Below are positions 22,191 to 63,446 of a stretch of DNA of 64,000 nucleotides, piece after piece. Every line of letters starts with the position of its first letter. Within the stretch, counting starts at the first letter, position 1. The stretch comes from Escherichia coli (GTDB taxonomy: Bacteria > Pseudomonadota > Gammaproteobacteria > Enterobacterales > Enterobacteriaceae). The position numbers were made by a program, and so were the translations under genes. The notes beneath the pieces are model-generated. The model did not search any database. It saw only the letters and a program-made list of their open reading frames with translations, and was not told the origin of the DNA. Where the stretch lies: assembly GCF_016026235.1 (NCBI RefSeq), contig NZ_CP065613.1; one strand, given 5' to 3'.

Positions 22191-22292
22191 AACCCCAAAC
22201 CTATCGAAAATATCGAATCTAGAATATAAAAACATTCATTTTTTTAAATGTTCCGTGTCGGGTACTGTCTACCAAAACAGAGGAGATAACAA

Positions 22293-22880
22293 GTGACACC
22301 GACCCTTTTAAGTGCTTTTTGGACTTACACCCTGATTACCGCTATGACGCCAGGACCGAACAATATTCTCGCCCTTAGCTCTGCTACGTCGCATGGATTT
22401 CGTCAAAGTACCCGCGTGCTGGCAGGGATGAGTCTGGGATTTTTGATTGTGATGTTACTGTGTGCGGGCATTTCATTTTCACTGGCAGTGATTGACCCGG
22501 CAGCGGTACACCTTTTGAGTTGGGCGGGGGCGGCATATATTGTCTGGCTGGCGTGGAAAATCGCCACCAGCCCAACAAAGGAAGACGGACTTCAGGCAAA
22601 ACCAATCAGCTTTTGGGCCAGCTTTGCTTTGCAGTTTGTGAACGTCAAAATCATTTTGTACGGTGTTACGGCACTGTCGACGTTTGTTCTGCCGCAAACA
22701 CAGGCGCTAAGCTGGGTAGTTGGCGTCAGCGTTTTGCTGGCGATGATTGGGACGTTTGGCAATGTGTGCTGGGCGCTGGCGGGGCATCTGTTTCAGCGAT
22801 TGTTTCGCCAGTATGGTCGCCAGTTAAATATCGTGCTTGCCCTGTTGCTGGTCTATTGCGCGGTACGCATTTTCTATTAA
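22293..22880 (+). CDS. eamB: Cysteine/O-acetylserine exporter (LysE/RhtB family)
   Basis: 195-aa ORF, GTG start preceded by AGGAG; six hydrophobic segments; matches EamB (YfiK). Confidence 0.92.
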   Translation: MTPTLLSAFWTYTLITAMTPGPNNILALSSATSHGFRQSTRVLAGMSLGFLIVMLLCAGISFSLAVIDPAAVHLLSWAGAAYIVWLAWKIATSPTKEDGLQAKPISFWASFALQFVNVKIILYGVTALSTFVLPQTQALSWVVGVSVLLAMIGTFGNVCWALAGHLFQRLFRQYGRQLNIVLALLLVYCAVRIFY

Positions 22881-22882
22881 CG

Positions 22883-22916
22883 AAAAAAAGCGGAAGAGGT
22901 CGCCCTCTTCCGCTTA
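22883..22916. terminator. Bidirectional intrinsic terminator between eamB and grcA
   Basis: AAAAAAAGCGGAAGAGG-TCGCC-CTCTTCCGCTT hairpin with A/T runs on both sides, between convergent genes. Confidence 0.7.
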
Positions 22917-22935
22917 GTAACTTGCTACTTAAGCC

Positions 22936-23319
22936 TTACAGGCTTTCAGTAAAGGTACGAGCGATAACGTCGCGCTGCTGTTCCGGAGTCAGAGAGTTAA
23001 AGCGAACTGCATAACCGGATACACGGATGGTCAGCTGCGGATATTTTTCCGGATGCTTAACTGCATCTTCCAGAGTTTCACGACGCAGAACGTTAACGTT
23101 CAGGTGTTGACCACCTTCAACGCGAACTTCTGGTTTCACTTCTACTGGAACTTCACGGTATTCAATGTCACCCAGTTTGCTTACTGCAACCACTTCATCT
23201 TCTGCATAACCTGCTTTTGCAACGATGCAACGTGCTTCGCCTTTTTCGCTGTCCAGCAGCCAGAAAGAGTTCAGCAGATCGTCGTTAGCGGCTTTAGTAA
23301 TCTGGATACCTGTAATCAT
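22936..23319 (-). CDS. grcA: Autonomous glycyl radical cofactor
   Basis: Track ORF 22936..23337; start set at [19 protein letters not shown] (127 aa); C-terminal RVSGYAV glycyl-radical motif. Confidence 0.95.
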
Positions 23320-44316: not shown

Positions 44317-44340
44317 AACGCGCCTTCGGGCGCGTTTTTT
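44317..44340 (+). terminator. Intrinsic terminator after raiA
   Basis: CGCGCCTTCGGGCGCG stem-loop followed by TTTTTT. Confidence 0.8.
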
Positions 44341-44396
44341 GTTGACAGCGTGAAAACAGTACGGGTACTGTACTAAAGTCACTTAAGGAAACAAAC

Positions 44397-47948: not shown

Positions 47949-48042
47949 GATGGCGATCCTGTTTATGCTCGTTTGCGATAGTTGATCCTCAGCGAGGATG
48001 ACGTAACGATAACACATAAAGTAAAGTTTTCAATCCATATTT

Positions 48043-48157: not shown

Positions 48158-48313
48158 ATGATGAAAAAGTTTATCGCCCCCTTGTTGGCTTTACTGGTTA
48201 GCGGATGCCAGATTGATCCTTATACTCACGCGCCAACCTTGACCAGCACCGACTGGTATGATGTTGGTATGGAAGATGCGATATCGGGCAGCGCCATAAA
48301 AGATGACGATGCA
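48158..48313 (+). pseudogene. yfiL: yfiL lipoprotein gene, 5-prime 52 codons only; interrupted by IS1
   Basis: MMKKFIAPLLALLVSGCQIDPYTHAPTLTSTDWYDVGMEDAISGSAIKDDDA (lipobox LVSGC), then the reading frame runs directly into the IS1 terminal inverted repeat. Confidence 0.8.
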
Positions 48314-48328
48314 GGTAATGACTCCAAC

Positions 48329-48832
48329 TTATTGATAGTGTTTTATGTTCAGATAATGCCCGATGACTTTGTCATGCAGCTCCACCGATTTTGAGAACGA
48401 CAGCGACTTCCGTCCCAGCCGTGCCAGGTGCTGCCTCAGATTCAGGTTATGCCGCTCAATTCGCTGCGTATATCGCTTGCTGATTACGTGCAGCTTTCCC
48501 TTCAGGCGGGATTCATACAGCGGCCAGCCATCCGTCATCCATATCACCACGTCAAAGGGTGACAGCAGGCTCATAAGACGCCCCAGCGTCGCCATAGTGC
48601 GTTCACCGAATACGTGCGCAACAACCGTCTTCCGGAGACTGTCATACGCGTAAAACAGCCAGCGCTGGCGCGATTTAGCCCCGACATAGCCCCACTGTTC
48701 GTCCATTTCCGCGCAGACGATGACGTCACTGCCCGGCTGTATGCGCGAGGTTACCGACTGCGGCCTGAGTTTTTTAAGTGACGTAAAATCGTGTTGAGGC
48801 CAACGCCCATAATGCGGGCAGTTGCCCGGCAT
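48329..48832 (-). CDS. insB: IS1 InsB (transposase C-terminal frame; made as InsAB by -1 frameshift)
   Basis: 167-aa track ORF matching IS1 InsB. Confidence 0.93.
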
Positions 48833-49026
48833 CCAACGCCATTCATGGCCATATCAATGATTTTCTGGTGCGTACCGGGTTGAGAAGCGGTGTAAGTGAA
48901 CTGCAGTTGCCATGTTTTACGGCAGTGAGAGCAGAGATAGCGCTGATGTCCGGCGGTGCTTTTGCCGTTACGCACCACCCCGTCAGTAGCTGAACAGGAG
49001 GGACAGCTGATAGAAACAGAAGCCAC
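48751..49026 (-). CDS. insA: IS1 InsA (transposition inhibitor / DNA-binding protein)
   Basis: 91-aa track [43 protein letters not shown]..., GTG start. Confidence 0.93.
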
Positions 49027-49272
49027 TGGAGCACCTCAAAAACACCATCATACACTAAATCAGTAAGTTGGCAGCATCACCAAAGGGGCTGATGAAAATG
49101 CCAGCACAATACGATTAAATTAATTAAAACCCCACAAATAAATTAAACATAAGATTTTACTCATTATGTTTTATTTCTCACAATGATGACGACTGCATGA
49201 AATAATGATATTTTAATGAGCATTCAGAAAAAATATCGATGCATTTCGAGCGAAGATGGTGGGGATCCCTGA

Positions 49273-49791
49273 ATGCGTTTTTCTCACCGACTGTTCTTAC
49301 TGCTGATTATCCTGCTGACGGGAGCACCAATACTCGCTCAGGAGCCTTCTGACGTTGCGAAAAACGTGCGTATGATGGTTTCCGGTATTGTCAGTTACAC
49401 TCGCTGGCCTGCGCTATCAGGGCCACCAAAGTTATGTATCTTTTCATCTTCACGTTTTAGTACCGCCCTACAAGAGAATGCCGCGACATCTTTGCCTTAT
49501 CTGCCTGTCATCATTCACACTCAACAAGAGGCGATGATTTCAGGCTGCAATGGTTTTTATTTTGGCAACGAGTCACCGACATTCCAGATGGAATTAACCG
49601 AACAATATCCGTCAAAGGCGTTATTATTAATTGCCGAACAAAATACCGAGTGCATTATTGGTAGCGCCTTTTGTCTGATCATCCACAATAATGACGTCAG
49701 ATTTGCCGTAAACCTGGATGCCTTATCGCGTAGCGGTGTAAAGGTCAACCCGGATGTCTTGATGCTCGCACGGAAGAAAAATGATGGATAA
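49273..49791 (+). CDS. yfiR: Periplasmic repressor of diguanylate cyclase DgcN
   Basis: 172-aa ORF with signal peptide; matches YfiR. Confidence 0.93.
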
Positions 49792-51007
49792 CGATAATTC
49801 TCTTAATAAGCGCCCCACGTTTAAAAGAGCATTACGCAACATCAGTATGACCAGCATATTTATCACTATGATGCTGATCTGGTTGCTGCTTTCCGTGACC
49901 TCGGTGCTGACCCTGAAACAGTACGCGCAAAAAAACCTGGCACTGACAGCAGCAACAATGACTTACAGTCTGGAAGCAGCTGTCGTTTTTGCCGATGGCC
50001 CTGCAGCAACTGAAACACTGGCAGCGCTGGGCCAGCAAGGGCAATTTTCAACTGCAGAAGTACGTGATAAGCAGCAAAATATTCTGGCATCCTGGCATTA
50101 CACCCGTAAGGATCCAGGCGATACTTTCAGCAATTTCATAAGCCACTGGCTCTTCCCTGCCCCCATCATTCAGCCGATTCGTCACAATGGTGAAACCATT
50201 GGCGAAGTACGCTTAACCGCTCGCGACAGTTCAATCAGCCATTTTATCTGGTTTTCGCTCGCCGTACTGACCGGTTGTATTCTGCTGGCATCAGGAATCG
50301 CAATTACCCTCACCCGCCATTTGCACAATGGCCTGGTGGAAGCACTGAAAAATATCACCGATGTCGTACATGATGTGCGTTCCAACCGCAATTTTTCCCG
50401 ACGAGTTTCGGAAGAACGTATAGCTGAGTTTCACCGCTTCGCTCTCGACTTCAACAGTCTGCTGGATGAAATGGAAGAGTGGCAGCTTCGTTTACAGGCC
50501 AAAAATGCGCAGCTTCTGCGTACCGCGCTACATGACCCATTAACCGGGCTGGCTAACCGCGCAGCGTTTCGTAGCGGCATCAATACGTTGATGAACAATT
50601 CCGCTGCCCGAAAAACGTCGGCGTTACTATTTCTTGATGGCGATAATTTCAAATATATCAATGATACCTGGGGTCATGCGACGGGCGATAGAGTCTTGAT
50701 TGAAATCGCAAAACGGTTAGCTGAATTTGGCGGGCTACGACATAAAGCATACCGCCTGGGCGGCGATGAATTCGCGATGGTGCTCTATGGTGTACAGTCG
50801 GAATCTGAAGTGCAGCAGATATGCTCAGCACTGACACAAATCTTTAATCTCCCGTTTGATCTTAATAATGGCCATCAGACCACCATGACATTAAGCATTG
50901 GTTACGCAATGACCATTGCGCACGCTTCTGCGGAAAAATTACAAGAGCTGGCCGATCACAATATGTATCAGGCCAAACACCAGCGTGCCGAAAAGCTGGT
51001 GAGATAA
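49781..51007 (+). CDS. dgcN: Diguanylate cyclase (membrane, HAMP + GGDEF)
   Basis: 408-aa ORF; GGDEF motif (YRLGGDEF); overlaps yfiR by 11 nt. Confidence 0.95.
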
Positions 51008-51022
51008 CAAGGATATATCGAT

Positions 51023-51505
51023 ATGATAAAGCACCTGGTAGCACCCCTGATTTTCACCTCACTAATACTGACTGGCTGCCAGTCCCCTCAGGGAAAGTTT
51101 ACTCCTGAGCAAGTCGCCGCTATGCAATCTTATGGATTTACTGAATCCGCCGGCGACTGGTCGCTGGGCTTATCAGATGCCATTCTGTTCGCAAAAAATG
51201 ACTACAAATTGCTCCCGGAAAGCCAGCAACAGATCCAAACCATGGCAGCCAAATTGGCCTCGACAGGGCTAACACATGCCCGTATGGATGGACACACCGA
51301 TAACTATGGTGAAGACAGTTACAACGAAGGCTTATCATTGAAACGGGCGAATGTCGTGGCCGATGCATGGGCTATGGGTGGACAAATTCCACGCAGCAAT
51401 CTCACCACACAGGGTTTAGGAAAAAAATATCCCATAGCCAGTAACAAGACCGCCCAGGGCCGCGCCGAGAACCGCCGCGTCGCAGTGGTGATTACTACCC
51501 CTTAA
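51023..51505 (+). CDS. yfiB: OmpA-family outer membrane lipoprotein YfiB
   Basis: 160-aa ORF; lipobox LTGC; OmpA-like C-terminal peptidoglycan-binding domain. Confidence 0.94.
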   Translation: MIKHLVAPLIFTSLILTGCQSPQGKFTPEQVAAMQSYGFTESAGDWSLGLSDAILFAKNDYKLLPESQQQIQTMAAKLASTGLTHARMDGHTDNYGEDSYNEGLSLKRANVVADAWAMGGQIPRSNLTTQGLGKKYPIASNKTAQGRAENRRVAVVITTP

Positions 51506-63322: not shown

Positions 63323-63446
63323 TATCTGCAATTTGTCCCGCGAAGTCCGAAGAGAACTAATTAAATCCGAACCTTTTAGGCCCATTGATAGGCCCAACGA
63401 AAAGCTCTATTGTTTTCGTTGGGCCTAAACGCATGGAGACTCCCCA

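Follow-up and report, generated by a model that had tools for sequence, protein, structure and literature searches.

A complete IS1 and an adjoining 168-bp deletion inactivate yfiL upstream of an intact yfiR-dgcN-yfiB module in a sub-lineage of Escherichia coli

In the Escherichia coli DNA analysed here, a stretch of 64,000 nucleotides from contig NZ_CP065613.1 (assembly GCF_016026235.1; hereafter the window), an insertion sequence interrupts yfiL directly upstream of the c-di-GMP module yfiR-dgcN-yfiB. An earlier interpretation made from the letters alone (hereafter the sequence-only reading) took the interruption to be more than a simple insertion, and held that the native upstream context of the module had been replaced by IS1. 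The locus raises the questions of how the present junctions arose, and of whether a regulator has been rewired or a single gene has decayed. We consider it likely that an IS1 inserted in yfiL and then mediated a 168-bp deletion, and that yfiRNB is expressed from its own promoter as in related strains. The parts of the element are as follows.

48314..49081, minus strand (transposase genes): IS1 (IS1A type), 768 bp, identified by repeats, ORFs, Pfam families and identical annotated copies
48314..48336: IRR, the IS1 right inverted repeat at the insB end, abutting yfiL nt 156
48329..48832, minus strand: insB' reading frame, open (ORF list)
48751..49026, minus strand: insA, 91 aa (ORF list)
49059..49081: IRL, the IS1 left inverted repeat at the insA/promoter end, next to yfiL nt 325 and directed towards yfiR

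The sequence-only reading described a complete 768-bp IS1 with intact inverted repeats and both insA and insB, and this is what we found at 48314-49081. The length, as well as the imperfect inverted repeats of ~23 bp beginning GGTGATGCT / GGTAATGAC, are those of the IS1 family. The element opens with GGTAATGACTCC (IRR, insB end) and closes with GGCAGCATCACC (IRL, insA end); the two arms of 23 nt each are 78% complementary, which is a normal IS1 pair, and the IRL consensus is matched once within the 64 kb, free of mismatches, where 0 matches would be expected by chance. On the minus strand, TTAAAAAAC at 48777-48769 is the A6C motif for -1 frameshifting, and the conceptual InsAB' fusion extends for 232 aa without a stop, as expected from the frameshifting of the IS1 family; the RefSeq annotation of identical copies carries the remark 'programmed frameshift'. 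The copy is 100% identical to those annotated as 'IS1-like element IS1A family transposase' in DS26-1, ST361 and VG1046-3E9, and the families DDE_Tnp_IS1, Zn_ribbon_InsA and HTH_Tnp_IS1 (PF03400, PF03811 and PF12759) are recorded for identical ORFs in GCA_900449985.1 (L003). The IS1A copy in yfiL is a standard one, and apparently active. The family trait it does not display is the target duplication of 8-9 bp: after exact boundary mapping, the left 9 bp (GACGATGCA) and the right 9 bp (AAAGGGGCT) differ, as the sequence-only reading had noted. The present junctions are therefore not those of a simple insertion, while the assignment to IS1 is unaffected.

What is left of yfiL lies on either side of the element.

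48158..48313, plus strand: yfiL 5' remnant, codons 1-52, the same as nt 1-156 of FDAARGOS_943 and MG1655
48158..48394, plus strand: chimeric ORF of 78 aa, YfiL residues 1-52 plus 26 IS1-encoded residues (ORF list)
49082..49123, plus strand: yfiL 3' remnant, codons 109-121 (KGADENASTIRLN) and the stop codon (read from the sequence)

Mapped on LR-31, MG1655 and FDAARGOS_943, the left flank stops at yfiL nt 156, precisely the position after codon 52 at which IS1 had been placed, and the right flank resumes at nt 325. Alignment to an intact yfiL-yfiR reference, which the sequence-only reading had proposed as a check, defines the missing part as yfiL nt 157-324. Against all three references exactly 168 bp are absent, corresponding to codons 53-108 and to MG1655 positions 2,741,516-2,741,683, in agreement with the earlier view of an IS1-mediated deletion or recombination product. 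In the intact YfiL of 121 aa, the DUF2799 domain spans residues 32-111 (Pfam); residues 53-108 are deleted here and the frame is broken after residue 52, so that ~70% of the domain is gone and the remainder is split by IS1. The 5' remnant encodes the signal peptide, the lipobox LLVSGC and the first 21 residues of DUF2799, and the chimeric ORF would accordingly comprise the signal peptide, the lipobox, 33 mature residues and the 26 residues encoded by IS1. This ORF is on record as STM06357.1, 'putative lipoprotein [Escherichia coli]', and the exact protein was found on 4 contigs only. Direct reading of the 3' remnant revealed no start codon after the in-frame TAA inside IS1. Since most of DUF2799 is lost and a 78-aa chimeric lipoprotein stub is all that could be made, yfiL is here a null allele, and the gene is a pseudogene.

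The window is one of a number of E. coli genomes with IS1 at this locus. Approximately 43 of the 5,426 complete genomes carry the element in yfiL, yfiR or the 5' part of dgcN (the counterpart of 48158-49900 in the window), or in the adjacent aroF, with both orientations equally represented. The orientation found in the window was seen in 22 genomes, 21 of them with the element in the region from yfiL to the 5' part of dgcN and one (AR_451) with the element in aroF; the opposite orientation was seen in 21 genomes, detected with a query in which IS1 was flipped. An orientation bias, which could have been taken as a sign of selection for outward promoters, was considered and rejected as an artefact of joining BLAST pieces strand by strand, the flipped query having given equal numbers.

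We mapped the IS1 sites in 20 genomes and in the window, counting nucleotides from the A of the yfiL ATG as 1. Seventeen are simple insertions with duplications of 8-9 bp; 16 of these lie between yfiL nt 114 and dgcN nt 1094, where they are spread over 15 distinct sites, and the remaining one is in aroF. Five are deletions devoid of a duplication, four of which remove yfiR and three of which also clip the start of dgcN. The yfiR-removing deletions, found in DS26-1, FG92-1, AR_0061 and GPEC1352/1354/1356, extend over 632-745 bp and eliminate all or most of yfiR, the gene for the periplasmic inhibitor of DgcN; in three of the four, the first 11-29 nt of dgcN are gone as well. The cyclase may be either derepressed or lost in these strains. 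The deletions in DS26-1, FG92-1, AR_0061 and GPEC1352 represent four independent events. A different arrangement was noticed in NT1N31 (L010, 2501-3268 and 4016-4783), in which an inverted pair of IS1 copies, one at the 3' end of yfiL and the other at the 5' end of dgcN, brackets yfiR; such a pair could lead to inversion of the yfiR segment.

In the window, the loss starts exactly from one end of the element, the element is intact, the flanks are colinear and no duplication is present. These are the features of an adjacent deletion, and an IS1-mediated deletion at yfiL is supported by this structure. By the most probable route, IS1 would first have made a simple insertion at AAAGGGGCT (yfiL nt 325-333) and had its insA end (IRL) directed towards yfiR. 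The insB end (IRR) would then have undergone one-ended intramolecular transposition into the position following yfiL nt 156, and the intervening 168 bp would have been excised along with one of the two copies of the 8-9 bp target duplication. The product would consist of yfiL codons 1-52, IS1 and yfiL codons 109-121, that is, a classical IS1 adjacent deletion.

We infer the order of these events, as well as the choice of the original junction, from the IS1 sites in other genomes. In DS26-1, AAAGGGGCT is followed by IRR, and in the window IRL is followed by AAAGGGGCT; as the element has the same orientation in both, the two junctions are the halves of one 9-bp duplication at nt 325-333. In addition, E. 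coli HS possesses an IS1 with a duplication at nt 322-329. The complementary halves and the HS site together suggest that the right junction of the window may be the original one, with the deletion running leftwards from IRR. Coincidences of this kind are found in three of the five mapped deletion variants, one junction of which agrees with a simple-insertion site or with a complementary junction elsewhere. For instance, the junction at nt 355 in AR_0061 matches the site at nt 348-356 in NT1N31/cS51a, and the junction at nt 932 in FG92-1 matches the site at nt 932-939 in P276M. The closest correspondence is between GPEC657 (L034, 2751-3518), with a simple IS1 insertion at the start of dgcN flanked by an 8-bp duplication (nt 1035-1042), and GPEC1352 (L014, 1998-2765). 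These two agree throughout their flanks (1997/1997 and 2200/2200 nt) and share both the IS1 and the right junction, and the left junction of GPEC1352 lies at yfiL nt 289, amounting to a loss of 745 bp (the 3' end of yfiL and all of yfiR). GPEC657 and GPEC1352 are likely to be a natural precursor and product of an IS1 adjacent deletion, judging from this identity. For the window itself, a look-up of the 137-aa chimeric protein predicted for an insertion at nt 325-333 detected no duplication-flanked simple-insertion precursor in the lineage; the protein was found only in DS26-1 and in two drafts of the same unrelated lineage.

The junctions could also have been produced by two direct IS1 insertions, at yfiL nt 148-156 and nt 325-333, followed by RecA-dependent recombination that deleted one copy of the element and the 168 bp between them; the left-hand junction would then derive from the first insertion and the right-hand one from the second. 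We regard this route as rather unlikely. Its product would be identical to that observed, the locus has been targeted repeatedly (15 distinct IS1 sites in ~1 kb), two copies reside at the locus at once in NT1N31, and three large deletions end on the right (nt 1035, 1050 and 1053) near the simple-insertion sites at nt 1035-1042 and 1086-1094. Nevertheless, it demands a recombination and two insertions separated by 168 bp, against one insertion and one further event for an adjacent deletion; an IS1 at nt 148-156 was seen in no genome; the element in the window is not mosaic in structure and matches single copies elsewhere with 100% identity; and the GPEC657/GPEC1352 pair is most simply understood as a deletion from a single IS1 copy at the locus. 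The adjacent deletion is thus favoured because of (i) the smaller number of events, (ii) the GPEC657/GPEC1352 pair, and (iii) the coinciding junctions.

The second question concerns the genes downstream of the element.

49124..49272, plus strand: yfiL-yfiR intergenic spacer, complete and native, 149 bp
49273..49791, plus strand: yfiR, intact, 172 aa, DUF4154
49781..51007, plus strand: dgcN/yfiN, intact, 408 aa, CHASE8 and GGDEF
51023..51505, plus strand: yfiB, intact, 160 aa, OmpA-like lipoprotein

The three genes are adjacent and intact, as in a YfiBNR module, with their Pfam families on record for the same genes in L003/L025, and the source records name the same proteins YfiR and DgcN. The DgcN protein is identical in the window and FDAARGOS_943. 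The premature stop of S. flexneri-type dgcN (PMC11327459) is absent from the dgcN of the window. A Shigella origin, which the IS1 and the 4.56-Mb contig had suggested, was set aside in view of this intact dgcN and of the Escherichia coli label on the chimeric protein record. The sequence-only reading estimated ~190 bp between the IS1 end and yfiR, and the distance to the yfiR ATG is 191 bp (49082-49272), composed of the last 13 yfiL codons, the stop codon and the 149-bp spacer. The accompanying claim, that IS1 has replaced the native upstream context of yfiRNB, is not supported: these codons, the spacer and a promoter-like site are all retained, which corrects the impression of a replaced control region. 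The spacer has the same length as in MG1655 and differs from that of FDAARGOS_943 by one base (49226). A consensus scan from the IS1 end to the yfiR ATG found a sole sigma-70-like site on the yfiR strand, CTCACA-18-AATAAT with a TG, at 49177-49206 inside the native spacer, and predicted no outward or hybrid promoter at the IS1 end (the IRL/yfiL junction). Between 47500 and 50000 no Rfam family was detected at E <= 1, and the predicted RNA fold of the spacer is ordinary (z = -1.5).

The literature assigns yfiL a transcription unit of its own, the promoter of which lies between aroF and yfiL (PMC3946193), and gives the composition of the yfi operon as yfiR-yfiN-yfiB (PMC4992967). As yfiR, dgcN, yfiB and the entire spacer are untouched, the module would be expected to use its own promoter, as it would in the relatives. 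Transcription from the yfiL promoter would now run into IS1; if yfiRNB is partly transcribed from that promoter, this part would be lost. The expected effect on yfiRNB is small, amounting at most to the loss of such read-through. This lack of a regulatory effect is what the preserved promoter-like site and genes would predict, and the case is one of routine gene decay of yfiL rather than of a rewired regulator.

Upstream of yfiL, a promoter-like TTGAAA-16-TATCGT on the minus strand (48006-48033) matches the aroF promoter listed in PMC3946193. This site and the yfiL promoter region are untouched, and transcription of the IS1 transposase points to aroF, 365 bp away. Within the yfiL-yfiR spacer, all the IS1-bearing assemblies (L003/L025, L026 and L027) show a T-to-A change at 49226, which is 47 nt ahead of the yfiR ATG; relatives that combine the same dgcN allele with an intact yfiL do not have this change, nor do other E. 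coli. Its occurrence is compatible with chance, given 7 SNPs in 14.3 kb.

It is improbable, in our estimate, that IS1 alters the expression of yfiR-dgcN-yfiB, through a new outward or hybrid promoter or through lost upstream control, and thereby affects c-di-GMP, biofilm and colony type. IS1 is polar. The element, only 191 bp upstream of yfiR, would therefore block read-through from the yfiL promoter, and some read-through of this kind is conceivable in the wild type, in which yfiL and yfiR are not separated by any predicted GC-rich terminator. Furthermore, reading of the IRL end reveals a -35-like TTGGCA at 49068-49073, and the SNP at 49226 travels with IS1, so that the spacer and its counterpart in the relatives are not quite the same. 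Against these points, the full 149-bp spacer is kept with its promoter-like site; no usable -10 lies at 16-18 bp from TTGGCA, where GATGAA matches 3/6 positions; the two IS1 orientations are equally frequent at the locus (20-22 versus 21 genomes), which gives no sign of selection for an outward promoter; and yfiL is regarded as a separate transcription unit (PMC3946193).

A broader possibility is that the region from yfiL through yfiR to the 5' part of dgcN is a selected IS1 target, and more than an AT-rich landing pad, in which insertions and deletions retune or switch off YfiR/DgcN quickly and in a partly reversible manner. This proposal, which counts 20 or more independent events among the 5,426 genomes, including four that remove yfiR, is in our view very doubtful. 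Roughly 43 IS1 copies were seen where ~12 per kb would be expected, a rough figure that assumes uniform placement and ignores clonality, essential genes and AT preference. The excess is modest, and we make no claim of selection. If the locus is genuinely a selected target, the event in the window would be a mild member of the series, cutting yfiRNB from yfiL-promoter read-through, and this loss, perhaps together with the SNP at 49226, would change DgcN output. In any event, a recurrent IS1 target with a likely precursor/product pair could feed the study of IS-driven c-di-GMP variation.

The junctions themselves are reproduced in other assemblies. Both are identical in the long-read NCTC assembly GCA_900449985.1, on a contig of 4.56 Mb that is the same as the window over 12.2 kb except for one T in the T-run at 44334-44341. 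This run, located upstream of pheA, differs in length between the two (6 vs 7 T), probably because one of the assemblies contains a homopolymer sequencing error. The Illumina draft GCA_001907535.1 has the left junction on one contig (L005) and the right junction on a second (L026), the latter comprising 240 bp of IS1 plus flank with 0 mismatches. The recurrence of the junctions in independent assemblies excludes misassembly: a collapsed or misjoined IS1 repeat giving a false junction and an apparent deletion is scarcely credible here, for although short-read assemblies break at a multicopy repeat such as IS1, and three contigs (L004, L005 and L027) end in or at IS1, the same junctions are present in a 4.56-Mb long-read contig and in two different Illumina contigs of another assembly.

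The suspicion that the insertion is strain-specific and missing from MG1655 was borne out. MG1655 has an intact yfiL and no IS1 at the locus, and none of the 5,426 complete RefSeq E. coli genomes shares the junction pair of the window; in this search every full-coverage match was in three pieces, spanning at least 1,525 bp. The closest complete genome is E. coli FDAARGOS_943, in which yfiL is intact and the flanks are ~99.9% identical to those of the window: the left flank, compared over 7.8 kb, has 5 mismatches and a single 1-bp gap, and the right flank, compared over 14.3 kb, has 7 mismatches. The gene is likewise intact in ~20 of the 24 contigs that we read with the identical DgcN allele. 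As most relatives with the identical DgcN keep yfiL, the IS1/deletion event is recent, lineage-specific and confined to a small sub-lineage. A search with the right junction among one genome per species gave no exact match, a result that is uninformative because the junction is lineage-specific. We found no published description of this yfiL insertion in the literature on yfiL in Shigella, on yfiR with IS1, or under the assembly accessions. Elsewhere in the two genomes, FDAARGOS_943 carries an IS5-family element of ~915 bp (22279-23193 of its locus L006) between ssrA and intA, which the window does not have (63357-63359), and a copy of IS600 further into the same ssrA/intA island.

By itself, the event adds one more IS-driven pseudogene, in a gene for a lipoprotein of unknown function and in one E. 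coli sub-lineage, and carries little weight. The 78-aa chimeric ORF and the two junctions provide a clean marker of the sub-lineage, and FDAARGOS_943 and the other relatives with the same dgcN allele are near-isogenic comparators with an intact yfiL for work on YfiL function.

The window can finally be compared with systems already described. In Pseudomonas aeruginosa, loss of function of yfiR derepresses YfiN and gives rise to small-colony variants (PMC2837407, PMC3375315). The homologous three-gene module is common to both bacteria; in the window, yfiR is intact, and no sequence feature there would predict derepression of DgcN. The yfiR-removing IS1 deletions of other E. coli resemble that of the window more closely, as they share the locus, the element, the absence of a duplication and one junction at a recurrent insertion site. 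Unlike them, the window deletion spares yfiR, dgcN, yfiB and the spacer. The element agrees with IS1 (IS1A) of E. coli in its 768 bp, 23-bp inverted repeats, insA/insB', A6C site and Pfam families. It differs from all 17 simple IS1 insertions mapped (16 at the locus and one in aroF) in having no 8-9 bp duplication, which is missing because of the adjoining deletion. IS1-promoted adjacent deletions are classical, and the earliest description reportedly concerned the gal region in E. coli K-12. In those deletions, too, an intact element remains in its place, DNA is lost exactly from one end of it onwards, one flank is preserved and there is no duplication; the deletion in the window is distinguished by being very short (168 bp) and inside one gene. 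Both the element (IS1A) and the mechanism (IS1-mediated deletion) are known, and the event at yfiL is of an already known kind.
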